Below the pieces are notes generated by a model. The model did no database searches and was not told the DNA's origin. It saw nothing but the letters and a program-made list of their open reading frames with translations. Shown in pieces: positions 1-11,868 of a stretch of DNA of 64,000 bases. The stretch is from positions 992 to 64,991 of the forward strand of contig DATJTK010000174.1 in NCBI GenBank assembly GCA_035503455.1. The letters are read 5' to 3'. Both the position numbers and the translations under genes were made by a program. The first letter of the stretch is position 1, and each line of letters opens with the position of its first letter. The DNA comes from Candidatus Sulfotelmatobacter sp. (lineage in GTDB: Bacteria > Verrucomicrobiota > Verrucomicrobiia > Limisphaerales > UBA11358).

Positions 1-755
1 AAGATACACTGGCCGTGTTCATCCCATTGCTTCTCTACATGTGCCATCGTATTGCGTGGGTGAATAACTTCAACCGGGAAGAGGGTATAAACGGACTTTA
101 ATTCTTTTAGCGCTGCCAATATTTTGGCTTCTTTCTCGGTTCCATTGCCATCTGAAGCTTTTTTGTTTAATTCTTTAATTCTGTCTTTTAAGATCCCCTG
201 CAGTAGCTTGTCCTTTTTGCCAAAATCGAATAGCCCGAATTCAGGGTCAAGCAGTCGATCTCGGAATAAAACGCCCTGATCTCCAAAGCAGTGAACCAAA
301 ACCTCGTTCAGCTTCGCCTCGATATCAATTGTCTCAGCAATCACGAGTCCACGAATGTTATTGATGTCTTGGGTCTTTTTCAGAGTCAGATCAATAACTG
401 CGAGGATTCGCTCCTCGGCGTCCTCCCTGGACGTGAAGTACACACCGTCGGGCGGCGTTTCAAATTTATCCTTTGGGTTTCCTGACTGTGAGTAAAAGAC
501 GATTTCGATTAAGACGTGCTTTTTCCTGATTGTTTCAATTAATTCCTTGCCGGTAACCTTTGGCAACTGAAAATCCACAATGATCAGGTCCAACTCGGGA
601 TTCCTTATGGCCTCGGCGATGTTCGCTCCGTTTCGCTCGAGGGCTATGTTTAGGCGAAAGCCAAGCCCGTCGCAGTGATCTTTAAGGGACCCTTCAATTG
701 ATTGCACCCATTTAGGTGTGTCATCAATCCATAGGATATTATAGTCCAGTTTCAT
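1..755 (-). CDS. Response-regulator receiver (REC) domain protein with C-terminal helical HEPN-like domain; 3' end cut by window edge
   Basis: Absent from the ORF track because it runs off the window. My translation of the minus strand from ATG at 753-755 gives MKLDYNILWIDDTPKWVQSIEGSLKDHCDGLGFRLNIALERNGANIAEAIRNPELDLIIVDFQLPKVTGKELIETIRKK..., open down to nt 3 (about 251 codons). IDD and LIIVD acidic pockets fit a receiver domain. The tail reads ...VEVIHPRNTMAHVEKQW, and RNxxAH (nt 39-56) fits the Rx4-6H HEPN signature. The ATG overlaps the upstream TGA (ATGA). Confidence 0.6.
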   Translation of the reverse strand, partial: MKLDYNILWIDDTPKWVQSIEGSLKDHCDGLGFRLNIALERNGANIAEAIRNPELDLIIVDFQLPKVTGKELIETIRKKHVLIEIVFYSQSGNPKDKFETPPDGVYFTSREDAEERILAVIDLTLKKTQDINNIRGLVIAETIDIEAKLNEVLVHCFGDQGVLFRDRLLDPEFGLFDFGKKDKLLQGILKDRIKELNKKASDGNGTEKEAKILAALKELKSVYTLFPVEVIHPRNTMAHVEKQWDEHGQCI

Positions 756-3127
756 TTTCTGAAGATAAGGACGAACTCTGCTCCATTTTCATTTTTTGTG
801 TTTAACTCGATATCCCCGTTCATGCCCCGAACAATCTCGGCAACGTGGTACAGCCCTAATCCCGAACCGTTCGTTGTCGAAAATCCCATCTCAAATATCC
901 TCTTCGCGTTTTTTTTCGGCACGCCAACACCATCATCCTTGACGCTCAACTTGAGTTCTTTCGCCGTCGCTTCTAATACAGTAACGACGATATCCCTTGC
1001 CTTGTGCTTGCGTGAATTACTGAACAGGTTGTCCATCACGATGCTCATCTCGATAGGAGTAAAGGCCGTTACGAAAGCGGCGGGCTTAGGAGCGACAAAT
1101 CGGACGCTGATTTCATCGTCATCTGGGGTTCGGATTGTACCCGCGCATACATTAAGCACATACTCGCGGATGAATTCAACCATATCAGCGCTGATTTCAA
1201 CAGCATCCATAACGAAGTTGGCCTTTGTCGCAAATCGGACTATGGTTAAGATTTTTTGGGCCTCGTAACTGATGCGCTCAATGGTAACGCCAACAACTTC
1301 TGGCAACAGGGGCTTGCCCTGTTGAATTCGGCGGCTCAAGTCCTTCACGTGGTTTTCAATCGTACCCGCCGAAATTCCAACATAGTGATGTAGGTTGACC
1401 ACTTGAGCGAGATCGCGAGAAAGGACCGATTTCAAAAAAAGGTTTTGGGTCGTCGTTTGGCGGTGCTCTTTCTCAGCCTTCGCTTCGGCTTCCCGCGCAC
1501 GTCGCGCTTCCTCTTCGGCAATCCGGGCCTTCTCTGCAGCTTCCCGTGCCTCCTGTTCAGCAGCCTTTGCCTTTTCTTTAGCCACGCCTGCTTCCTGCTC
1601 TGCCTCTTCCCTGGCTCGGGTGAGAACCTTTAGGTGCTTTTCGGCCTTGGCAGCTTCAATGATCAGAACCCTATTATTTGAATCGGCGGCGATGCGTTTG
1701 AAATTCTTGAGCAGCGATGAAACGCTACTTTCTGAACGGTTCTCCAATATGTTTAAAAGATCTGGGTCGTAAGAGAAATCCAGCACCTGTTCCGACTTCG
1801 TAAGCCGAGCGATTAGGTCAAAAATGTGAGCCTTTGTTTCTTCTGGTGATAGACCTTCTTGATCGAGTAAGTCACCATCGTTTCCGAATCGTATAATTCC
1901 AACGACAAAAGCCTCAAGCCTTTTCAAAGCAAACTCAATAAAAAACTCGCGCAGGTCATCAAACGCTTCATTATCAACGAGCCCGCCATCCCTACTGCTG
2001 GTTTCGCGGAATTCCGAATTATCGCCATTAATTTCGATTCGCCCGGTAAGATCTCGAGTGCCCAAAAAGCGTGCTTGGCCTTGTTGCTTACGTCTATTGA
2101 TACCCAGTTTGTCCTCGTGTACGTCACCAAACGGATGGATGCGAAATCCATTCTTATAGAGAAATACAGAACCGTACTCCACTGGGCGTAGCCCCATGCT
2201 CTTTGAGAAAAGCATTTTGGCGGAATGATTTAACGCGAAAAGATAGATTGAAATATTTTTCAAAGTCTTTTCGTAAGGATTCTTCTCGCGGATTTCATAA
2301 ATCAGTGTTCCTCTGTCTGTCAATTTCGTGCTTAGTTCTTTTCCGTCCGCCGCAACACGCACTTCAATCTGTGTGGTCTTGAGCCGCAAATTTTCAAATA
2401 GAAAATTGCGAATTCGCCCATTAACTATATTCCATGGCTCGGTCTTCGGTGCCTCACTATCAGCTGCCTTTTCCTCCGGAACGTGAAGATAAATCGCGAA
2501 GTCATCGACGTCGTTTTCCTGATTCGGGTTAACGAGCCTTTCTAACGATCGTCTCAACCCCAGGAGCTTGTCGCGCGTCCAGTCGCTGCTTCTCAAGCCG
2601 CCGATTTCGAGAATTGTTCCACGGCGCAGGTGATACGGGATTGAATGCGCGGTTTTATACTCAACCGGCACAGCGATAAATTCTTTTTTGGCATCTACCT
2701 CGAAATCATTCCAGTTAACCGTCAAAATATTGAACGGAGCCCCCGACGCATTCTTTCGGCTATAAACTTTCAAATTGCTTCCGAGTCGATCGCAGGAAAA
2801 GCGGCCAATGCCCTTCGCTCCAGCATAAACCCTGGTAGATTTGATTTTGTCCCGATAGTCTGCGCCTTCTTTCTTGGCGGAGTATGCCACAAAAAGCCAC
2901 TTGTTGAATAAATCCGGCCGATCCATTCCGTTGCCATTATCCTGAACCACGATTCTAGCGCTCTTCGAATTCAGCGACATGAAGGTAATATCAACACGCG
3001 TGGCATTTGCATCGAACGAGTTCTTTACCAATTCGAAAACGGCAATAAAGTCGTTAGTTATAAGCTCCTTTCCGATGATAGTCTTCAGCGCGGAGCTTAC
3101 TCGAAAGGATGGTTTGGTTTCAGGCAT
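752..3127 (-). CDS. Hybrid ATPase: N-terminal MORC/Hsp90-like GHKL (HATPase_c_3-type) module, coiled coil, C-terminal histidine-kinase-type HATPase_c
   Basis: 791-aa ORF. The N-terminus has AVFELVKNSFDANA (N box), VVQDNGNGMD (G1) and YAGAKGIGRFS (G2). An E/A/K-rich coiled coil lies at about nt 1455-1625. The C-terminus has IVMDNLFSNSRKH, VKDDGVGVP and GFSTTNGSGLGLY, typical of sensor kinase catalytic domains. A canonical H-box is not obvious (FLKSVLSRDLAQVVNLHHY). Confidence 0.75.
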   Translation of the reverse strand: MPETKPSFRVSSALKTIIGKELITNDFIAVFELVKNSFDANATRVDITFMSLNSKSARIVVQDNGNGMDRPDLFNKWLFVAYSAKKEGADYRDKIKSTRVYAGAKGIGRFSCDRLGSNLKVYSRKNASGAPFNILTVNWNDFEVDAKKEFIAVPVEYKTAHSIPYHLRRGTILEIGGLRSSDWTRDKLLGLRRSLERLVNPNQENDVDDFAIYLHVPEEKAADSEAPKTEPWNIVNGRIRNFLFENLRLKTTQIEVRVAADGKELSTKLTDRGTLIYEIREKNPYEKTLKNISIYLFALNHSAKMLFSKSMGLRPVEYGSVFLYKNGFRIHPFGDVHEDKLGINRRKQQGQARFLGTRDLTGRIEINGDNSEFRETSSRDGGLVDNEAFDDLREFFIEFALKRLEAFVVGIIRFGNDGDLLDQEGLSPEETKAHIFDLIARLTKSEQVLDFSYDPDLLNILENRSESSVSSLLKNFKRIAADSNNRVLIIEAAKAEKHLKVLTRAREEAEQEAGVAKEKAKAAEQEAREAAEKARIAEEEARRAREAEAKAEKEHRQTTTQNLFLKSVLSRDLAQVVNLHHYVGISAGTIENHVKDLSRRIQQGKPLLPEVVGVTIERISYEAQKILTIVRFATKANFVMDAVEISADMVEFIREYVLNVCAGTIRTPDDDEISVRFVAPKPAAFVTAFTPIEMSIVMDNLFSNSRKHKARDIVVTVLEATAKELKLSVKDDGVGVPKKNAKRIFEMGFSTTNGSGLGLYHVAEIVRGMNGDIELNTKNENGAEFVLIFRK

Positions 3128-4313
3128 CGTGGGCCAATTGTTTTAACACATACCCAGCAAGCTCTGCAAAAAGTGGCGGAATCGCGTTGCCAACCTGCGT
3201 GTAGCGAGGGACCTCTCTGGATCGGCGGTCACCGCCGGATGTATATTTGCCCCGAAACTCAAAGTCATCCGGGAATGATTGAATCCGAGCACACTCGCGA
3301 ACAGTAAGTACCCGTGGCTCGGCGTAATGAATGTAGTCGTCTGGGAGACTGGTAATCGTTGGACAAACTGCGTTTTCGTCGAGCGGGGTAATCGAACGTT
3401 TTTTCAAATCATACTTCGTCCGCAAATCGCCAGAGAGTTGTTTATCGCGGGGGGCGTGCTCCAGGATTTCTTCAAAACGCTCAACAATGTGCGGACGGTG
3501 CCTCGGGAATCGGTGGCTGTCGGGAATTTTCGGCAGGTAATCCAGGCGCATCAATTTCTGATATTTGTTCTTCGCAGGAGCGTATTGTCCAGAACGAAAA
3601 TTCCTCGAATCCGGGCATTCGGCTTCGCCGTGCTGCCGCTCCAAATCAGAAATCGCCTGTGACACGCTTTGAACGATCCCCAAGCCCTTTTTCTTCAGGA
3701 ATTCAGTCCTACGCTCCGTCAGGCACTCGAAAAACTCTTCAGCTTTTCCAATTAGTGTGCCGACGAGAATAAAGCGGAGCCGCCTTTGGGGCACACCGTA
3801 ATTCCCGAAGTTTATAATCTTCCAGCAGACGTCGTAGCCGAGATCCTTCAATCGCCGGACGACTTGGGCCGAGTACACAACCCCTGAGCCGTTTTTCAAA
3901 AATTCCATGCCGAATCCGCGGACATTCTCGAAGAATAAAAGCTTCGGCATGACCAACTCGACGAACGAAACATATGAATCGACCAGCCTGTTCCTGCGGT
4001 CCCGTTGGTTGCGCCGCCCATTGACCGAAAAACCCTGGCACGGAGGTCCGCCGGCAATCAGGTCTACAGATGACGCAAGCTTCCGAACTTGTGTTTTATA
4101 ATTCAAAAGAACCTCGTCGATGTCATGCGGGCCAAGCGGGAACCAACCTGGCCAACGAAAATGTTTTTTCCGATCAATGAGATTGTGCCTAAGCGTCTCG
4201 AAGGCAAACGCATCCTTTTCAATTGCAAAGAGCCCTTGCCAGCCAGATTGCATCAGTCCCCATGATAGGCCGCCACAGCCAGCATAGAGGTCAATGTACT
4301 CGAGAGACGCCAT
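3120..4313 (-). CDS. dcm: DNA (cytosine-5)-methyltransferase
   Basis: 397 aa with motif I DLYAGCGG, motif IV GGPPCQGFS, motif VI ENV, QRR and motif X GNAIPP. Its stop overlaps the downstream ATPase start by 8 nt. Confidence 0.93.
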   Translation of the reverse strand: MASLEYIDLYAGCGGLSWGLMQSGWQGLFAIEKDAFAFETLRHNLIDRKKHFRWPGWFPLGPHDIDEVLLNYKTQVRKLASSVDLIAGGPPCQGFSVNGRRNQRDRRNRLVDSYVSFVELVMPKLLFFENVRGFGMEFLKNGSGVVYSAQVVRRLKDLGYDVCWKIINFGNYGVPQRRLRFILVGTLIGKAEEFFECLTERRTEFLKKKGLGIVQSVSQAISDLERQHGEAECPDSRNFRSGQYAPAKNKYQKLMRLDYLPKIPDSHRFPRHRPHIVERFEEILEHAPRDKQLSGDLRTKYDLKKRSITPLDENAVCPTITSLPDDYIHYAEPRVLTVRECARIQSFPDDFEFRGKYTSGGDRRSREVPRYTQVGNAIPPLFAELAGYVLKQLAHDA

Positions 4314-4327
4314 TTTAAACGCTTTTC

Positions 4328-4341
4328 TTAACAGTTGTTAA
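4328..4341. promoter_or_regulatory. Perfect inverted repeat TTAACA-GT-TGTTAA in the 31-nt spacer between the HNH gene and dcm
   Basis: Read directly at nt 4328-4333 and 4336-4341. It lies 15 nt upstream of the dcm ATG on the minus strand. An operator or hairpin role is only a guess. Confidence 0.3.
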
Positions 4342-4344
4342 CCG

Positions 4345-5151
4345 CTATGTCATGCACTTTTCGGCATGGAGTCTCAGAAATCCCGCATCCGGCGCAAATT
4401 TCTTCGGCAGCAGCAGACGTGCGCCGTCAAAGCTAGTGAGCCAGCGCCTGGTTTCATTGTCCTCTGTGGATTCGCTAAGCCGCCCAGAAAAGCGGATGAG
4501 GTACCCGTCTTCAATCCACATCAAGTGCCGGTCAAACGCACGGTCGTGGAGTGCGTTCAGGCACAGGCCGTTTCGTGGATTCAACCGGTTTTTTTCATCA
4601 TCGGACCACGGGATGATGTGGCTGGCCGTCAGCAGCGGTTGAACGGTCAGACCGGTGACACAGCAGCGGAAATTATAGGCGGAAAGAATACGGTCACGAA
4701 AAAAGCTTTGGTTCACGCGCACGCGAACGGTCGCCTCGCGCTCCAGTCCGGCCGGTGGCAGGTCATCGGTCTCCACGTCCGCCACCTCTTCAATGGGTTT
4801 GTGAAGTCGGGCGGCCAGCAAACGTTCGCTTTCGAAGGCCAGCGTTTCCGGTTGATCGGCAAATTCGCGCCAGATTTCCACCTCGCCTTTGGCGCCATGG
4901 CTCATGCCGCGAATTCCGCGCGCCTGCAGCGCCGGGTCGAGCCGCGCAAAATTGGAAAGCTTCAGCGAGACCGCGCCAGCCCTGCGCCCCAACAATTTTG
5001 CCAATTGGATGACGCGCGGGTTGTGCATGTGGATTTGCCCGAATGGAATTTTGCAATACAAGTTGAACGCCAGGATGTGCTCCTCGCGCGTCCAATCTTT
5101 GTGTTTCCCGGCCATGACCTGATTTCCGCCAAAATTGTGACTGTTTAACAT
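4345..5151 (-). CDS. HNH endonuclease (HNH_2 / restriction-type)
   Basis: The C-terminus has CCVTG...ASHIIPW...NPRNGLCLNALHDRAFD. The N-terminal DWTREEHILAFNLYCKIPFGQIH... region is typical of stand-alone HNH restriction-like proteins. The track start at 5160 is TTG; ATG options are 5151 and 5115. GC content is host-like, unlike the genes downstream. Confidence 0.8.
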   Translation of the reverse strand: MLNSHNFGGNQVMAGKHKDWTREEHILAFNLYCKIPFGQIHMHNPRVIQLAKLLGRRAGAVSLKLSNFARLDPALQARGIRGMSHGAKGEVEIWREFADQPETLAFESERLLAARLHKPIEEVADVETDDLPPAGLEREATVRVRVNQSFFRDRILSAYNFRCCVTGLTVQPLLTASHIIPWSDDEKNRLNPRNGLCLNALHDRAFDRHLMWIEDGYLIRFSGRLSESTEDNETRRWLTSFDGARLLLPKKFAPDAGFLRLHAEKCMT

Positions 5152-5217
5152 GTTTGGCAAGCACGATGTTGCGAATTGAAATCCGTACCGTTACCATGAC
5201 CGTAAATTATCACTGGC

Positions 5218-6117
5218 ATGGTAAATATGGACCTCAAGGGAATTCTGATTCTTCCGATTTATACCGCCTTGTTTATGGCAGTATTTGTAGCGGTCGTTGC
5301 ATGGGACCGGCGCAAACGACGGACTCGAAAGCCGTTTGGTGAAAATGTGAAACTCTTGCGGATGCCGGGCGAACATCTTTGGCGGCAAGTAATCGAGAAG
5401 GACGCGTCCGAGATATATTGGACATTTGGCCTAATGGTTTTGCCGATCTTTGCCGCATGGTTGGCCCTTCAAATTGCGGCTCATTTTTTCAACAAATCGT
5501 ACGTCGGCTTTGTCGTCGCAATCGTTGTTTTCGTATTCGTCATGCTGTTATGCATTCGATGGCTGGTCGCTCGGCTGCAAAGACGCCAAAATGAATACCT
5601 GGGATTTTTCGGCGAGCGGTTCGTTGCAGATTGTCTCGAGCCTCTGAAAGAAAACGGATGGTTCGTTTTCCACGACATTCAATGCGATGGTGCGACCGGG
5701 AAATTCAATCTGGATCACGTGGCCGTTGGCCCAGGCGGAATTTGGGTGGTTGAAACGAAGACTCGGCGCAAGGGCCGCGCGCGCCCTGACATGGACCCTG
5801 GGAAAGTGGTGTTCGATGGCGCGAAAATCATCTGGCCGTGGTGGAATGATTCGACCTCCATCAAACAGGCAGCGAATAATTCGAACTGGCTTCGAGATTG
5901 GTTGGAAAAAATGACTGAGAGGAAGTTTGACGTTTCCGCCGTGATTGCGATTCCGGGATACAAAGTAGAAGCAAAAAGCAGGACAGGAGTCCGGGTAGTA
6001 GCACCAGAAGACCTTCAAGATGTCCTGGTTGGCTATGGAAAAACGATATTGTCTGCCGAAGATATCAGGATGATTCGTCTTCAATTGGCCGCCAAATGCC
6101 GGGACGTGGAGTTCTAA
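5218..6117 (+). CDS. NERD (nuclease-related) domain protein with N-terminal transmembrane segments
   Basis: 299 aa with three hydrophobic helices in the first ~110 aa, followed by WFVFHDIQCDGATGKFNLDHVAVGPGGIWVVETKTRRK, the NERD core pattern. It is divergent from the HNH/dcm operon. Confidence 0.75.
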   Translation: MVNMDLKGILILPIYTALFMAVFVAVVAWDRRKRRTRKPFGENVKLLRMPGEHLWRQVIEKDASEIYWTFGLMVLPIFAAWLALQIAAHFFNKSYVGFVVAIVVFVFVMLLCIRWLVARLQRRQNEYLGFFGERFVADCLEPLKENGWFVFHDIQCDGATGKFNLDHVAVGPGGIWVVETKTRRKGRARPDMDPGKVVFDGAKIIWPWWNDSTSIKQAANNSNWLRDWLEKMTERKFDVSAVIAIPGYKVEAKSRTGVRVVAPEDLQDVLVGYGKTILSAEDIRMIRLQLAAKCRDVEF

Positions 6118-6290: not shown

Positions 6291-6350
6291 GGGATGGGGG
6301 ATCCGATTTGGGCAGAGCGGCAGCTAGTGGCAGCTCTGCCCTACCGTTTT
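6291..6350 (+). repeat. Intergenic hairpin module, copy 1 (gggatgggggatccgatttGGGCAGAGC...GCTCTGCCCtaccgtttt)
   Basis: Near-identical to 6739-6787 except for a longer loop. A GC stem is followed by a T-run, so it may act as a terminator for plus-strand transcripts such as the NERD gene. Confidence 0.6.
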
Positions 6351-6650
6351 TGGATTTGCCGGCCGCGGCGCAGGGCAGGCTATGAGGAATTCACGAATCT
6401 GGGAAGGAAGACCGGATTTTTCGCCCATTTATTCAACTATCCACCGATCCGACCATCCAAAATCCCCACCAGCGATAACGTTAATGTAGCTTTTTGTAGC
6501 TTTTGGTGTTGCCAAAATGTTGCCGACTAAACCATTGGCATTCAACGATGTAGCCGATGTAGCCGATCTTCAGAGCAATCATCATCAAATCATAGCCAAA
6601 ACCGAAAACTTTTTTAACCACGAAACACACAAAACACACGAAAGGTTTTC

Positions 6651-6722
6651 GCGGATTTAAACAATGAGGAAAACAGGAATTCAGGAACTTAAATCTGCGT
6701 CAATCTGTGAAATCTGCGGATC
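6651..6722 (+). repeat. About 70-bp intergenic repeat (gcggatttaaacaatgaggaaaacaggaattcaggaacttaaatctgcgtcaatctgtgaaatctgcggatc), copy 1
   Basis: A direct copy at about 90% identity lies at 7402-7471. Shorter relatives occur at 9261-9299 and 13101-13143, and inverted at 59535-59575, 60171-60207 and 61191-61250. Confidence 0.75.
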
Positions 6723-6738
6723 ATGGTTATGGATTGAC

Positions 6739-6787
6739 GGGATGGGGATCCGATTTGGGCAGAGCGGCAGCTCTGCCCTACCGTTTT
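6739..6787 (+). repeat. Intergenic hairpin module, copy 2
   Basis: gggatggggatccgatttGGGCAGAGCggcaGCTCTGCCCtaccgtttt. It overlaps the 3' end of the 6778-7353 ORF and supplies that ORF's stop codon. Confidence 0.6.
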
Positions 6788-7353
6788 CCGTTTTCCGGTT
6801 GGTAAACGTGTACCATGGCGCCGGTACTGAAAACTTTCGTTTCAATCAGCTTGAGGTACAGAGGCTTGCTGAGCTTTTCAAATAGACCGAAACCGCTGCC
6901 CGCCGCCACAGGATGGATGGCCAGGCAGAATTCATCGATGAGACCTGTTTGAACCAAATTTTGGGCAAATTCAATGCCTCCATGAGCCATCAGGTCTTTG
7001 CCCTTTTGTTTCTTAAGATCTCTGATCCCTTTAGCCAGGTCACCGGTGACGACCTTCGCATCCGCCCAACCTTTTGCGATCGAGGCCTGACTCGGATCAA
7101 AGCCTTTTTTCGAGAAAACGATTTTAGGAATTTCGTTCATGGGCTTCGCAAGGATTCCGCCGGCATTGGGCCAAAAAGAAGCCATCTCGCAGAATGCTTT
7201 TCGGCCCATCAGATGGGCCCCTGCCTGCCCCATTTTTTCCGCGACCCAGGCCGCTCCGTCAGGACTTCTTGATTTGGCAAAATCGAGTTTTCCATCGGAT
7301 GATTCCATAAATCCATCGATCGATACGGATATTCTCAAAATTAATTTTCTCAT
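6778..7353 (-). CDS. Dihydrofolate reductase family protein (RibD C-terminal domain-like)
   Basis: 191 aa. MRKLILRISVSIDGFMESSDGKLDF...HLMGRKAFCEMASFWP...LMAHGGIEFAQNLVQTGLIDEFCLAIHPV fits the family pattern. Confidence 0.8.
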   Translation of the reverse strand: MRKLILRISVSIDGFMESSDGKLDFAKSRSPDGAAWVAEKMGQAGAHLMGRKAFCEMASFWPNAGGILAKPMNEIPKIVFSKKGFDPSQASIAKGWADAKVVTGDLAKGIRDLKKQKGKDLMAHGGIEFAQNLVQTGLIDEFCLAIHPVAAGSGFGLFEKLSKPLYLKLIETKVFSTGAMVHVYQPENGKR

Positions 7354-7401: not shown

Positions 7402-7471
7402 GGATTCGAACAATGATGAAAATAGGAATTCAGGAACTTAAATCTGCGTCAATCTGCGAAATCTGCGGATC
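7402..7471 (+). repeat. About 70-bp intergenic repeat, copy 2
   Basis: ggattcgaacaatgatgaaaataggaattcaggaacttaaatctgcgtcaatctgcgaaatctgcggatc. Together with copy 1 it brackets the DHFR-family gene. Confidence 0.75.
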
Positions 7472-8067: not shown

Positions 8068-9189
8068 TCAGTTAGCACCTTCTGCCGCAGGGGCGGCGGC
8101 GGGCCGTTTGCGCCAGAGAAACCATAACCCAAGTCCCGCCGCCACTCCGCCAAGATGCGCCAACGATGCCACAGTGCCGTGACCGGACATTTGAATCATT
8201 GCTCCAAACAGTTGCATTACAAACCACAGACCGAAAAGCACCCACGCCGGAAGCCGAACCCAGCCGGAATGTCCCCGCAACCATAACCACCAGAAAAAGA
8301 TCGCAATGCGCGCCCTGGGAAATTGAAACGCATAAAATACCAGCACGCCGGAAATGCCGGCGCTGGCCCCGATGGTTGGCAAATTGGAACGGGGATCTCC
8401 CACTATATCCAATATGTTGCCGACAAAATCGGATCCAAAAATCAGGAGCAAAAATCGCCACCATCCGAGGATCCCCTCCACTTCGCCGCCGAATAACAGG
8501 AAGAAATAAAGATTGCCGAATAGGTGCGCGAAGCCTGCGTGCAGGAAAAACGACGTCAGAAACGTCAGGCCGCCGTACCGCAATGCGTGCGCCGGTACGA
8601 GCCCGAAATTCTCTATCGCTTCGCGCAGATCGGAAAACGCGCAGAAACTCACGATGACGATGAGAAGGGACAAGCCCCATGTCACCCACGGCCGGCTGGC
8701 GACTTCCGCGTTGTAATATTTGACCGGAAAGCCCAGGGAAGCCGGGATCCATTTCCAGGCCTCGTCCGGCGGGTCGGTCAGAACATCTTCCCCAAGCGCC
8801 GCCTGCTGTTGCATCTTGTGTTTCGCCTCGGCTTCTGCCGCGGTCAAAAGAACCGAGTCAGGCGAATCCAGGACGCCTTCGGGCAATACTTCAAATTTTC
8901 CCGCTTCGAACCAAACCACGACGCAGGGCCTGCACGAATTGAGCGTGACGGGCGGGTCCGAGACGTCAAACGATTTCATCGAGCATTGGCAGAAGGGGCA
9001 TTCCAGCCAGGAGACCTGGGTGGCCGTGTTGATTTTCCGGACGAGTCCCGAGGCAAACCGATCGCCGGTGAGCCGGCGAATTTGTGGCACAGTCACGGCG
9101 CGGCCATTGCATTGACCGCAATAGTAATAGAGGCCATCCCGTTGCCGGACGGTTTGCAACGCAATCTTGCACGTTGGACAGGTGGCCAT
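8068..9189 (-). CDS. Rhomboid family intramembrane serine protease with N-terminal zinc-ribbon domains
   Basis: 373 aa. Cys pairs CPTCK...CGQCNG and CPFCQC...CRPC sit at the N-terminus. The protein is polytopic, with catalytic GASAGISG and the downstream HLGG motif. Confidence 0.85.
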   Translation of the reverse strand: MATCPTCKIALQTVRQRDGLYYYCGQCNGRAVTVPQIRRLTGDRFASGLVRKINTATQVSWLECPFCQCSMKSFDVSDPPVTLNSCRPCVVVWFEAGKFEVLPEGVLDSPDSVLLTAAEAEAKHKMQQQAALGEDVLTDPPDEAWKWIPASLGFPVKYYNAEVASRPWVTWGLSLLIVIVSFCAFSDLREAIENFGLVPAHALRYGGLTFLTSFFLHAGFAHLFGNLYFFLLFGGEVEGILGWWRFLLLIFGSDFVGNILDIVGDPRSNLPTIGASAGISGVLVFYAFQFPRARIAIFFWWLWLRGHSGWVRLPAWVLFGLWFVMQLFGAMIQMSGHGTVASLAHLGGVAAGLGLWFLWRKRPAAAPAAEGAN

Positions 9190-9515: not shown

Positions 9516-9760
9516 TTGTCCTTCGTGGCCTGCCCGGCGTAGGCCTCGCGAAGACGGGTCTTCGCGGGACAACGTTTCGTGTGGTTCGTGTATTTCGTGG
9601 TTCCTTTTTTTCCTGCAAGGTTTCACAACCGTAATCGTATAGATTAGTGAAGATATGAAACACAAATTTCAACCTCTCCATTTGGCATTCGACGAAAAAG
9701 CTGTTATTATGAACATAGGCAAGAGAGGAAGCGTCAATTATAATAGACCGACGATGACGG

Positions 9761-10882
9761 ATGGACCATATCGCAATGAAAACAATCTTTAATCTCACTT
9801 TAATGTTCGTGTTCGGTCTCGCCGTATTTGTATCCATGCCCCGGGCGCAGGCACAGGACCAGGTCCCGCCGCCCATGCCCGCCGGGCAGACCTTTAGCGA
9901 TGCTCAACTGCAACAGTTGCTGGGGCCTATCGCGCTTTATCCCGATCCCTTGATCGCCAACATGCTTCCTGCCGCCACGCTTCCCACCGAAATCGTCATG
10001 GCTGACCGCTATGTCAGCGGCGGCGGCGATCCCAATCAAATTGATCAGCAGCCGTGGGACCCCAACGTTCAGGCGCTTGCCCATTATCCCGCCGTTTTGA
10101 AATGGATGGACGATAACCTCAACTGGACGACTCAACTGGGCGAAGCGTTCCAAAACCAGCAGGACGATGTCATGAACGCGATTCAGGAATTGCGCACTGA
10201 GGCCTATAATCTGGGCAACCTTCAATCCACACCCGAGCAGCAGGTCGTTGACGACAACGGTTACATTGAAATCATCCCGGCCAACCCGGATGACCTCTAT
10301 GTCCCGCAATATCAGCCAGACCAGGTCTATTACGATCAACCCATCGTCGGCGGCACCCCCTATATCACCTTTGGCGTGGGCTTCGTCATTGGGCCGTGGT
10401 TGTGCGGCGATTTTGATTGGCATAATCGGCATCTGATCTACTGGGACCGCGATCATCCGCGCCCGGCCGGCTGGTGGAATCAGACCCCGCAATTTCGCGC
10501 CAACTACTTCGCTGCCGGCCACGCCAACGTTTGGAATCCTGCCAATCGCGCGACCTACAACGCCCCGGCCTGGGGCGATCGCGGCTATGACAATCACCTG
10601 CCCTGGACCGCTCCGGCGGTAAATCGCCCTGCGCCCGCGCCTGTGGAACAACGTCCAAACGCGTTCATCGGCATCCAAAACAGCCAGGATACTCGAGACT
10701 ACAGCGATCGGGGCGAGCACAGCATGGAAACGATGCCTCAATTCCGCAACCTCGGCGCATTTCACGGCGGCGAACCGGCAGGCGGCCAATTTCATGGCGG
10801 CGGCGCTCCGGCGGGCGGCGGTTACCACGGCGGTGGAAGTCCTCCTGCGGGCGGTGGCGGCGGCGGCGGTGGAAGACGTTAA
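9761..10882 (+). CDS. DUF3300 domain-containing secreted protein
   Basis: Signal-like N-terminus, LLGPIALYPDPLIANMLPAATLPTEIVMADRY (DUF3300 signature) and a Gly-rich tail. It is paired with a DUF2950-like gene, as is common. Confidence 0.72.
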   Translation: MDHIAMKTIFNLTLMFVFGLAVFVSMPRAQAQDQVPPPMPAGQTFSDAQLQQLLGPIALYPDPLIANMLPAATLPTEIVMADRYVSGGGDPNQIDQQPWDPNVQALAHYPAVLKWMDDNLNWTTQLGEAFQNQQDDVMNAIQELRTEAYNLGNLQSTPEQQVVDDNGYIEIIPANPDDLYVPQYQPDQVYYDQPIVGGTPYITFGVGFVIGPWLCGDFDWHNRHLIYWDRDHPRPAGWWNQTPQFRANYFAAGHANVWNPANRATYNAPAWGDRGYDNHLPWTAPAVNRPAPAPVEQRPNAFIGIQNSQDTRDYSDRGEHSMETMPQFRNLGAFHGGEPAGGQFHGGGAPAGGGYHGGGSPPAGGGGGGGGRR

Positions 10883-10902: not shown

Positions 10903-11868
10903 ATGACATCCAAAGTGTCCCGGCTCATGAAATTTAAACACGTCTGTGCTGTGGCCCTGGCCATTCAGGCGCTGTGGCCATTGCAATCGGTTCGCGCAAT
11001 GAACCCAAACCAGGAGAGCTTCAATTCGCCTGAGGAGGCCGTCAATGTCATGGTGACAGCCGCCCGAAACCGCGAGACCGAGGAACTCCACGCCGTTTTC
11101 GGCCCGGAGGGCAGAACATTAGTTTCGCCGGATGCCGTCCAGGCCGCCGCATCGTACGACATGTTTATAAAACGGCTGCAGCAGAAAATTGTGTTGGTGA
11201 CCAATTCCGACGACAATATCTCGCTTCTTTTGGGCAATGACAATTGGCCCTTTCCAATTCCGCTCATTAAACGCGACGGACAATGGCTTTTCGACACTGA
11301 CGCCGGCCGGCAGGAAATCATTGCCCGCCGTGTCGGCATGAACGAGTTGGGCGCGATTGCCGTGTGCCATGCCTACGTGCAGGCGCAGCGCGAATACGCC
11401 AGCCAGGACCGCATGACCAATGGCATTCTGGCGTACGCCCAATTCCTTCACAGCGATCCCGGCACGCACGACGGCCTTTACTGGCCCGTCAAAGCGGGCG
11501 AACCGTTAAGCCCGCTGGGACCCCTCGTTGCGGCCGCGCACGGAGAAGGCTATCATCACACCGCGAAAATGTTGAATCAGCAGACCGCGCCGTATCACGG
11601 CTACTATTTCAAAATCCTCACCCGCCAGGGCCGGCACGCTCTTGGGGGAAAATATAATTACATTATCAACGGACACATGATCGCGGGTTTCGCGCTGATT
11701 GCGTGGCCTGCCGAATGGGGCAACACCGGTGTCATGACCTTTATCGTCAATCAACAGGGCAAAATCTATGAAGCTGACCTCGGTCCAAAAACCATCCACC
11801 TCGCTCCCCGTATAGCGGAATTTGATCCCGACCCCCGCTGGTGGAGCCCGGTGGGAGCAGTGCCATGA
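10903..11868 (+). CDS. DUF2950 family secreted protein
   Basis: Signal peptide plus DGLYWPVKAGEPLSPLGPLVA...GYYFKILTRQG...GFALIAWPAEWGNTGVMTFIVN motifs. It lies immediately downstream of the DUF3300 gene. Confidence 0.7.
   Translation: MTSKVSRLMKFKHVCAVALAIQALWPLQSVRAMNPNQESFNSPEEAVNVMVTAARNRETEELHAVFGPEGRTLVSPDAVQAAASYDMFIKRLQQKIVLVTNSDDNISLLLGNDNWPFPIPLIKRDGQWLFDTDAGRQEIIARRVGMNELGAIAVCHAYVQAQREYASQDRMTNGILAYAQFLHSDPGTHDGLYWPVKAGEPLSPLGPLVAAAHGEGYHHTAKMLNQQTAPYHGYYFKILTRQGRHALGGKYNYIINGHMIAGFALIAWPAEWGNTGVMTFIVNQQGKIYEADLGPKTIHLAPRIAEFDPDPRWWSPVGAVP

Follow-up and report, generated by a model that had tools for sequence, protein, structure and literature searches.

What does a MORC-like ATPase fused to a histidine kinase do when its gene lies between those of a DNA methyltransferase and a receiver (REC) protein? 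This question is raised by the start of a 64,000-nt stretch of DNA, called the window here (contig DATJTK010000174.1, positions 992-64,991; assembly GCA_035503455.1, Candidatus Sulfotelmatobacter sp.). An earlier note on this DNA had described four minus-strand genes there as a defence cassette linked to restriction-modification (R-M). Using open reading frame (ORF) calls and Pfam, we found these genes with the coordinates and domains that it had claimed, in the order HNH_2 endonuclease, C5 cytosine DNA methyltransferase (Dcm), 791-aa ATPase and REC protein. The last three form the conserved core, a trio of Dcm, GHKL/histidine-kinase hybrid and REC protein carrying an output domain, and what is new here is that they belong to a distinct, widespread lineage among the GHKL-kinase/receiver modules linked to R-M, and that this lineage has a characteristic output domain.

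Linkage of the trio

The HNH_2 gene (4345-5151, minus strand, as are all four) starts at the ATG at 5151 in the public gene call, for a product of 268 aa; its ORF extends to 5160, giving 271 aa from a TTG. After a spacing of 31 nt follows dcm (3120-4313; 397 aa), whose product matches PF00145 (E = 7.8e-51) and TIGR00675 (E = 2e-39) and shows PCQ, ENV and QRR motifs in its translation. Next are the soluble paraMORC-type GHKL ATPase/histidine kinase hybrid (752-3127; 791 aa) and the REC protein (Response_reg PF00072, E = 1.2e-9), whose open frame exits the window start (<1-755). On the full contig, the REC protein (P0001) is 290 aa, of which the window contains aa 1-251, and a Vsr gene lies 19 nt downstream of the REC gene, just beyond the window edge. 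Together, HNH_2, Dcm and Vsr look like an ordinary type II R-M set joined to the trio.

We found that the Dcm stop and the ATPase start overlap by 8 nt, ATGCCTGA, and that ATGA at 752-755 is common to the ATPase stop (TGA) and the REC start (ATG), an overlap of 4 nt. The 4-nt ATPase/REC overlap was found again in 40/80 other loci, and a Dcm/ATPase overlap of 4 or 8 nt in 39/80; here and below, locus counts refer to the best 80 of at least 553 ATPase relatives in species-representative genomes. Hence, the overlaps are not due to chance, and the three genes appear to be translationally coupled, as the earlier note had proposed from the junctions. Promoter and terminator scans gave chance-level results and were uninformative on operon structure.

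The trio singled out in that note does recur. We scanned one genome per species, called the Dcm, ATPase and REC neighbours with hidden Markov models from our own alignments and confirmed at least 553 ATPase relatives among at least 599 pattern-matching stretches listed. The 80 loci span Verrucomicrobiota, Planctomycetota, Chloroflexota, Bacteroidota, Bacillota, Acidobacteriota, Nitrospirota, Proteobacteria, Patescibacteria and others. In 74/80 loci, the gene directly upstream of the ATPase and on its strand encodes a C5 methylase, which is nearby in the remaining loci (6/80), and a protein with REC and a domain bearing the motif RNxxAH is encoded directly downstream of the ATPase in 66/80. In addition, the full trio is present on each of the 13 viral or proviral contigs from IMG/VR that encode an ATPase relative, with dcm sometimes convergent or divergent. 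Since the linkage survives rearrangement on these contigs, there is good evidence for functional dependence among the three genes.

Departures from the trio mostly concern the receiver gene. A receiver match without the RNxxAH domain was found in 9/80 loci, of which one (L004) is ended by a contig edge and eight (L046, L051, L053, L055, L057, L062, L064 and L074; mostly Flavobacteriia-like) encode a short, receiver-only protein of ~125-140 aa; several of these eight have a larger and more distant Dcm-like gene, and in L053 an HNH nuclease gene (9690-10538; PF01844, E = 1.5e-12) comes next after the receiver-only gene. The remaining 5/80 are truncated or decayed (L025, L034 and L061) or encode a divergent receiver with another tail (L049:8248-8919 and L052:9280-9948). 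This last protein, of 222-223 aa, has receiver-like motifs (ILIVDD...IIDINL) and a different tail with no Pfam match; it represents a further type of output on the shared kinase scaffold. Decaying copies were seen at L061:8536-10189, with a truncated ATPase and a receiver gene broken into two ORFs, and at L097:5999-7686, where the ATPase gene is interrupted by ~1.7 kb.

A flank census, with Pfam and PADLOC on the nearest flanking genes of the 80 loci, identified no common restriction nuclease, and most of these loci have no identifiable one. The window HNH_2 protein matches Pfam HNH_2 (PF13391, E = 1.4e-12) and the PADLOC models HNH PDLC04132 (E = 4.6e-84) and type II restriction endonuclease PDLC03546 (E = 3.8e-41), and it is probably the restriction partner of Dcm at this locus. 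The HNH gene, which the earlier note had made part of the cassette, though not of its translationally coupled genes, is present here but found beside the cassette in only about 5/80 loci (L007, L014, L020 and L029 next to the trio, and L053). Similarly, Vsr accompanies the trio in about 10/80. HNH_2 and Vsr are optional extras of the cassette. Genes for repair of deaminated 5-methylcytosine were also counted (Vsr 9, DUF559/MTES_1575 6, HhH-GPD 5 downstream and 3 upstream); since these T:G-repair genes recur beside the cassette, we take Dcm to be active on the host.

The flanks also include integrases, TnsE, type I R-M, MADS mad2/mad3, Septu PtuA, Hhe, reverse transcriptase, DpdF and a number of PDC candidates; defence and mobile-element genes are frequent neighbours of the loci. 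In the window, the GC content of the cassette is 49.5% relative to 55.6% for the window, the lowest in the window and ~3 standard deviations under the mean of 5-kb windows. With its low GC, its integrase, TnsE and defence neighbours and its carriage on viral contigs, the cassette is horizontally mobile.

Kinase hybrid and receiver protein

The ATPase combines a MORC/HATPase_c_3 module, a coiled coil and a histidine-kinase catalytic domain, which confirms the architecture read in the earlier note. Its N-terminal Bergerat-fold GHKL module (2669-3046, minus strand; aa 28-153) is MORC/MutL/BbrUII-HgiDII-like; it matches HATPase_c_3 (PF13589, E = 6.6e-26) and, in NCBIfam, restriction enzymes of the BbrUII/HgiDII family (E = 9.9e-21) as well as MutL (E = 4.5e-13). 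We found E32, N36, D63xGxG and G103-G108 of this module invariant in an alignment of 21 ATPase relatives of 50-86% identity (A2). With a MutL/MORC-like Bergerat ATPase (HATPase_c_3) in an R-M neighbourhood (C5 methylase adjoining), the protein has the paraMORC trait. The middle region (aa ~200-480) is conserved and has no Pfam match, and Pfam detected no nuclease domain in the ATPase. An Ala/Glu/Lys-rich coiled-coil linker (1448-1660, minus strand; aa ~490-560), with weak matches to Alanine_zipper and the DndD coiled coil, separates the ATPase body from the kinase module.

In the kinase module, L579-H580-H581 (1385-1393, minus strand), within DHp-like helices, is an H-box candidate with a putative phospho-accepting His, and it is invariant in the 21 ATPases. 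Alignments of the DHp and CA regions to FixL-type kinases (4gcz, 8a3u) begin exactly at L579; hence, the His pair occupies the expected H-box place. In the YF1/FixL chimera 4gcz, the phospho-accepting His, which we take to be residue 161, would fall on H581 if the alignment is ungapped at its start. The CA domain (761-1048, minus strand; aa 694-789) has N, G1 and G2 boxes and matches HATPase_c (PF02518, E = 2e-24), with D699/N700/N704, D731xGxG and G754xGxGL invariant in A2. The C-terminal 234 aa match many solved histidine-kinase CA domains (e.g. 4i5s, E = 2.9e-8). The protein, therefore, has the traits of a two-component kinase, a DHp His and CA N/G1/G2 boxes, and both of its nucleotide-binding sites are intact, judging from their motifs. 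We propose that the 791-aa hybrid is a sensor-transmitter.

The downstream protein begins with a REC domain (369-755, minus strand; aa 1-129; D61 at nt 573-575, ending the LIIVD motif) and continues into a C-terminal, all-helical output domain, the putative effector (1-368, minus strand; aa 130-290, with aa 130-251 within the window). We compared 53 REC-protein homologues with identity down to 28% (A1) and 128 cluster representatives of 25-41% identity (A6), of which 112 match the canonical PF00072. In both sets, D61 (the phospho-acceptor), Y88, R135, G136, R234 and H239 are invariant; N235, A238, R273 and S89 are at least 90% conserved; and D11-D12 of the receiver acidic pocket are largely conserved. 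Hence, the receiver claimed in the earlier note stands (Response_reg, D61), but the RNTMAH motif (aa 234-239; nt 39-56), which the note had placed at the end of the helical region, does not end the 290-aa protein. A beta-hairpin follows the motif, and then the last helix, which carries conserved R273, H279 and N282.

AlphaFold2 modelled the full-length REC protein with a predicted local distance difference test score (pLDDT) of 92.8 and a predicted template-modelling score (pTM) of 0.88, as a (beta-alpha)5 receiver, then six helices and one beta-hairpin. Foldseek with this model found receiver domains only, with template-modelling scores of 0.7-0.78 to many REC domains. The output domain modelled by itself has a pLDDT of 91.3. 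Neither Pfam on the 128 family members nor Foldseek on the confident model detected a helix-turn-helix (HTH) or winged HTH (wHTH). The output domain was found in 904 clusters (50% identity, representative library; 459 at E <= 1e-10), only as a fusion to REC. Among the best 150 listed, it starts at ~residue 125-140 in full-length proteins, the shorter ones listed being fragments; hence, it follows a receiver-sized module. This family of output domains is large and previously undescribed.

Is the output domain a HEPN RNase, as the earlier note had claimed from RNTMAH? The R-N-x-x-A-H motif agrees with the Rx4-6H signature of HEPN, including the polar residue that usually comes after the Arg, and R[ND]xxAH is present in 64/66 genomic loci encoding REC with the output domain. 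In the AlphaFold2 models, the domain is an all-alpha helical bundle as in HEPN, plus the beta-hairpin. A minority of members have sub-threshold matches (E 0.002-0.8) to the HEPN-clan families HEPN_Swt1, HEPN_Apea, Abi_2, DUF4145, MAE_28990, RES_NTD1 and RiboL-PSP. Of the three with coordinates examined, DUF4145, HEPN_Apea and RiboL-PSP, each alignment stops at or near the motif, about three-quarters through the profile. The other matches of the family are to receiver families (Response_reg, cREC_REC) and coiled-coil or low-complexity noise, so HEPN is the sole clan pointed to.

Several results weigh against this assignment. No match of the A1 and A6 members to a Pfam HEPN family is significant. 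Foldseek with the domain-only model returned neither a HEPN nor a winged helix from the PDB (best E = 0.35) or BFVD (best E = 0.25), with no HEPN in the top 50; its matches are generic helical bundles (in the PDB, vinculin tail, catenin and chemoreceptor bundles). A profile search of PDB sequences with the output domain found nothing. Moreover, the modelled motif lies at the C-terminal end of a helix and is followed by the beta-hairpin, an arrangement that we could not find in a solved HEPN. That the output domain is a HEPN RNase is, hence, a reasonable, unproven proposal, which we consider about evenly balanced. No Foldseek match supports an Hpt-like or an HNH-like (beta-beta-alpha) reading of the domain. 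An AbiJ protein from an Enterobacter mori plasmid (L083) has an atypical motif and was, for this reason, rejected as a reference profile for HEPN.

Relatives and proposed mechanism

The earlier note knew of no characterised system of this kind, a statement that is now outdated: the architecture was published in 2021 (PMC8011034), and a related system, Ambrosia, has been validated (bioRxiv 10.1101/2025.09.30.679545). Bellieny-Rabelo, Pretorius & Moleleki (2021) described proteins with HATPase_c_3, HEF_HK and HATPase_c, 91.6% of which are linked to Response_reg_2 proteins; these response regulator (RR)-like proteins have no further domain reported (PMC8011034). The HEF_HK proteins are enriched beside C5 methylases, HNH_2 is their commonest nuclease, Vsr is usually just after the RR-like gene, and the authors related the proteins to paraMORCs and suggested signalling control of R-M systems (PMC8011034). 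The window has the identical layout, a C5 methylase with HNH_2 and Vsr after the RR-like gene, and its ATPase shares the soluble N-terminal HATPase_c_3, the DHp-like region, HATPase_c at the C-terminus and the RR-like gene directly downstream. In contrast, its lineage has an invariant LHH H-box, whereas HEF_HK has a core His then Glu/Asp, and a conserved 160-aa RNxxAH domain fused to REC. HEF_HK (PF19191) matched neither the window ATPase at E <= 1 nor five distant members at E <= 0.1. Only 2/128 members match Response_reg_2 (PF19192), at E ~0.035, and the window REC protein is not a member; since two members touch PF19192, its model is present in the library.

Ambrosia is an anti-phage system validated in Pseudomonas and consists of the XRE protein AbrR, the N6-adenine methylase AbrA, the kinase AbrB, the REC protein AbrC and the HNH protein AbrD, all five of which are required; AbrB N40A and AbrC D60A abolish defence (bioRxiv 10.1101/2025.09.30.679545). 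As here, a methyltransferase, a HATPase_c_3...HATPase_c kinase, REC and HNH are in one cluster. We compared the first ~400 aa of AbrB and found its GHKL module 32% identical over 206 aa to that of the window (E = 3e-29); AbrB N40 corresponds to N36 here by alignment, and AbrC D60 to D61 by position and alignment. However, the window cassette has no XRE ORF, and its methylase is of the C5 type (PF00145), not N6-adenine. Similarly, AbrC (209 aa) has a short tail without RNxxAH, whereas the window REC protein carries the RNxxAH domain, and hhalign of A1 against AbrC gave a probability of 0.7%, over the REC core only. AbrD is PtuB-like HNH (PF01844/HNH_4), whereas the window nuclease is PF13391 (HNH_2). 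Furthermore, Ambrosia is confined to Gammaproteobacteria, with 76% of occurrences in Pseudomonadales (bioRxiv 10.1101/2025.09.30.679545), whereas the window cassette has Vsr and its family spans many phyla. By these comparisons, the cassette is a member of neither HEF_HK/Response_reg_2 nor Ambrosia.

MORC-like GHKL ATPases embedded in R-M operons are said to have been described by Iyer, Abhiman and Aravind in 2008. Anantharaman et al. (2013) reported PrrC analogues in R-M contexts in which a paraMORC is fused to HEPN (Ymh), and no REC-HEPN protein, and VcSduA (Shedu), a paraMORC3 GHKL with a nuclease, is a validated defence protein. These paraMORC proteins (BbrUII/HgiDII restriction endonucleases, VcSduA and paraMORC-Ymh) share with the window ATPase the N-terminal MORC/MutL-like GHKL, the R-M context and the coupling to an effector. 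However, their nuclease or HEPN is fused to the ATPase, whereas here there is a DHp-CA kinase, and REC, which is a separate protein, carries the candidate effector; hence, coupling would be by phosphotransfer. PrrC and RloC are type I R-M-linked anticodon nucleases that form a suicidal second line of defence (discussed in PMC3710099), with an ABC-type ATPase fused to HEPN. The likeness is conceptual, an R-M-associated NTPase coupled to a HEPN RNase; theirs is controlled by protein-protein contact with EcoprrI, not by phosphorelay, and we claim no sequence relationship. The DefensePredictor paper, in which HATPase/REC appears in a figure legend only, was not used as a source.

Related kinases are also carried by plasmids. 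They are encoded on the Campylobacter coli plasmid pCC21NB01-51K (L084, 4980-9433) and on the Enterobacter mori plasmid (L083, 4947-8169), and 41 records of conjugative pTet-like Campylobacter plasmids match; in Campylobacter, a convergent dcm follows. With an LHEGR H-box and no PF19191/PF19192 membership, these form a further lineage. Their kinase gene overlaps the gene for a 340-357-aa receiver protein, which has an unrelated, conserved C-terminal domain (220 aa) that ends ...PFLKDI[IV]A[KR]FS.YYARQG.P. A ParaMORC3-annotated gene of Escherichia phage PhiR44_1 (PV340563.1, 8566-9024; a 32-kb record) matches the GHKL module with 30% identity (E = 1e-10) and is of the Shedu-type GHKL-nuclease kind, not the kinase hybrid.

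How might the window cassette work? The gene structure, the domain identities, the intact catalytic residues, the tight, widespread linkage and the mobility are directly supported, and from them we propose that the cassette is a mobile, R-M-like immunity or addiction module with an effector released by phosphorelay, for which we see an even chance. Dcm would methylate a specific cytosine context on the host genome and so mark self DNA, and the linked Vsr would repair the T:G deamination damage that arises from this methylation. The paraMORC GHKL and the middle region, akin to the ATPase half of BbrUII/HgiDII-type restriction enzymes, may engage DNA without the Dcm mark and dimerise upon ATP binding. 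Dimerisation would be passed via the coiled coil to the DHp-CA module, with autophosphorylation at H580 or H581. The phosphoryl group would then go to D61 of the REC protein and release the ~160-aa helical C-terminal effector domain. As a HEPN-like RNase, the RNxxAH effector would halt the infected cell or a cell that lost the methylase, and at the window locus the HNH_2 nuclease may add a conventional DNA-cutting arm.

We infer three steps of this scheme, namely the trigger (unmethylated DNA), the His-Asp phosphotransfer between kinase and REC, on the basis of adjacency and the 4-nt overlap in 40/80, and the effector activity. Some observations do not favour it: the trigger is purely inferential; the REC beta5 Lys is not clearly conserved, with Arg common nearby (A1, A6); and PADLOC found no named system in the cassette, its models of type II restriction endonucleases matching just the GHKL part of the ATPase.

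Could the kinase and REC protein instead act as an ordinary two-component regulator and turn on the R-M genes beside them (Dcm, HNH) upon infection or stress? Such a model has been put forward for HEF_HK/Response_reg_2, through the signalling control of R-M suggested in PMC8011034, and for Ambrosia, whose authors found infection-induced expression with a reporter, annotated a wHTH in AbrC, lost defence with REC D60A and prefer to see REC as acting in transcription (bioRxiv 10.1101/2025.09.30.679545), a further point against a directly acting effector. The window HNH and Dcm are indeed available as a regulated output, but a restriction nuclease that could be regulated is absent from most of the 80 loci, and a regulator coupled downstream of a methylase under its control would be unusual. 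In addition, no HTH/wHTH was found in the 128 members (Pfam) or in the confident model (Foldseek), and the similarity to AbrC, which has the wHTH and no RNxxAH domain, is weak and limited to the REC core. Hence, with most loci lacking a restriction nuclease and the RR having no detectable DNA-binding domain, we read the kinase/REC pair as an effector arm and consider the regulator unlikely. Equally improbable, in our view, is that the output domain is a non-enzymatic, phosphorylation-controlled adaptor that gates the GHKL ATPase (through the middle region, aa 200-480) or a nuclease in trans, like HNH_2. That region might hold nuclease or DNA-clamping activity, the ATPase N-terminus resembles genuine GHKL restriction enzymes (BbrUII/HgiDII), the GHKL clamp of VcSduA gates a nuclease, the structure search yields helical-bundle interaction modules only, and REC-only variants exist, one then followed by an HNH gene. 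Yet the conserved polar R234, N235 and H239, together with R135 and R273, have the look of catalytic or ligand-binding residues and not of a packing interface, Pfam detected no nuclease domain in the ATPase, and across 904 clusters the output domain is fused to REC only.

In eukaryotes, MORCs act on chromatin that is methylated or silenced (background in PMC8011034), and the commonest neighbours here are repair genes for deaminated 5-methylcytosine (Vsr, DUF559/MTES_1575, HhH-GPD) and not nucleases, as would fit a non-immune epigenetic or DNA-maintenance module in which the MORC-like ATPase reads cytosine methylation and adjusts repair, compaction or expression. Vsr-type genes are ordinary companions of any Dcm, however; the closest tested relatives are defence systems; and the patchy phylum spread, low GC, viral and plasmid carriage and integrase, TnsE and defence neighbours fit a mobile selfish or defence element, so we regard this explanation as very improbable. 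Experimental precedents for the phosphorelay-released effector are the Ambrosia mutants that lose defence, at the residues matching N36 and D61, and VcSduA. It is also supported by the variety of outputs on the same kinase scaffold, which differ by lineage: the RNxxAH domain, REC-only followed by HNH, the AbrC tail and the 220-aa plasmid domain. This is the pattern expected of swappable effectors. Since the receivers paired with this scaffold bear varied or no tails, most loci of the lineage lack a nuclease to regulate, and the receiver has no detectable DNA-binding domain, we favour the output domain as a phosphorylation-gated effector. The fuller proposal, that a MORC-like, DNA-sensing ATPase wired to a histidine kinase replaces the restriction enzyme and that a phosphorelay licenses a HEPN-like RNase for abortive infection, widespread in phyla and prophages, we advance only tentatively.

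Neighbouring genes and significance

In six proteobacterial loci, the REC-RNxxAH gene is followed, after a gap of -13 to +25 nt, by a gene of the same orientation for a ~150-aa HAD phosphatase (plus strand; L006:10191-10643, L019:10249-10692, L023:10249-10692, L026:10207-10680, L029:10217-10681 and L045:10221-10679). The protein, which has the motif FDIDGTLAD, is similar to the phosphatase domain of polynucleotide kinase-phosphatase (best E = 5.9e-37 to Pfam HAD_PNKP), and it could heal nucleic-acid 3'-phosphate ends, which fits an RNase effector, or reset the phospho-receiver.

Divergent from the window HNH gene, and 57 nt apart, is a gene for a membrane-anchored NERD-domain protein (5218-6117, plus strand; PF08378, E = 5.6e-17; hydrophobic N-terminal segments). 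We rejected it as part of the system because it is beside the cassette only in two contigs of the same sequence, and it is probably a separate island gene. A lead to MADS, from PADLOC model numbers nearby and a weak MAD6 match of NERD, was dropped, since the MADS paper describes no kinase/REC pair. Further along, two pairs of direct repeats (6297-6357 and 6744-6794, ~60 nt, 88-100% identity; 6653-6722 and 7402-7471, 70 nt, 93%) bracket a small RibD_C-like gene (6778-7353, minus strand) and produce near-identical short ORF starts (MxKxGIQELKSASICEICGS); they are possibly a repeated intergenic element or a duplication scar. GC climbs to 57-60% in the chromosomal genes that flank the island. The ordinary chromosomal flank comprises a rhomboid protease with an N-terminal zinc ribbon (8068-9189, minus strand), a DUF3300 gene with a Gly-rich tail (9761-10882, plus strand) and a second, unannotated ORF after it (10903-11868, plus strand).

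Two-component phosphorelay is the main signalling logic of bacteria. To our knowledge, it is barely connected to immunity, and its only tested example there is Ambrosia (a preprint). With at least 553 relatives confirmed and 904 output-domain clusters, the window lineage is larger and more widely distributed than Ambrosia. It also fills an annotation gap, as its genes now bear the labels "signal transduction histidine kinase" and "CheY-like protein" and are not recognised by PADLOC. Since a nuclease gene is usually absent and the output domain is conserved and without detectable DNA-binding traits, this lineage is the best place to ask whether phosphotransfer directly fires a defence effector. 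Should the RNxxAH domain prove to be an RNase, the cassette would link DNA-methylation sensing to RNA-level abortive infection, and it would provide a compact, switchable nuclease module gated by Asp phosphorylation.

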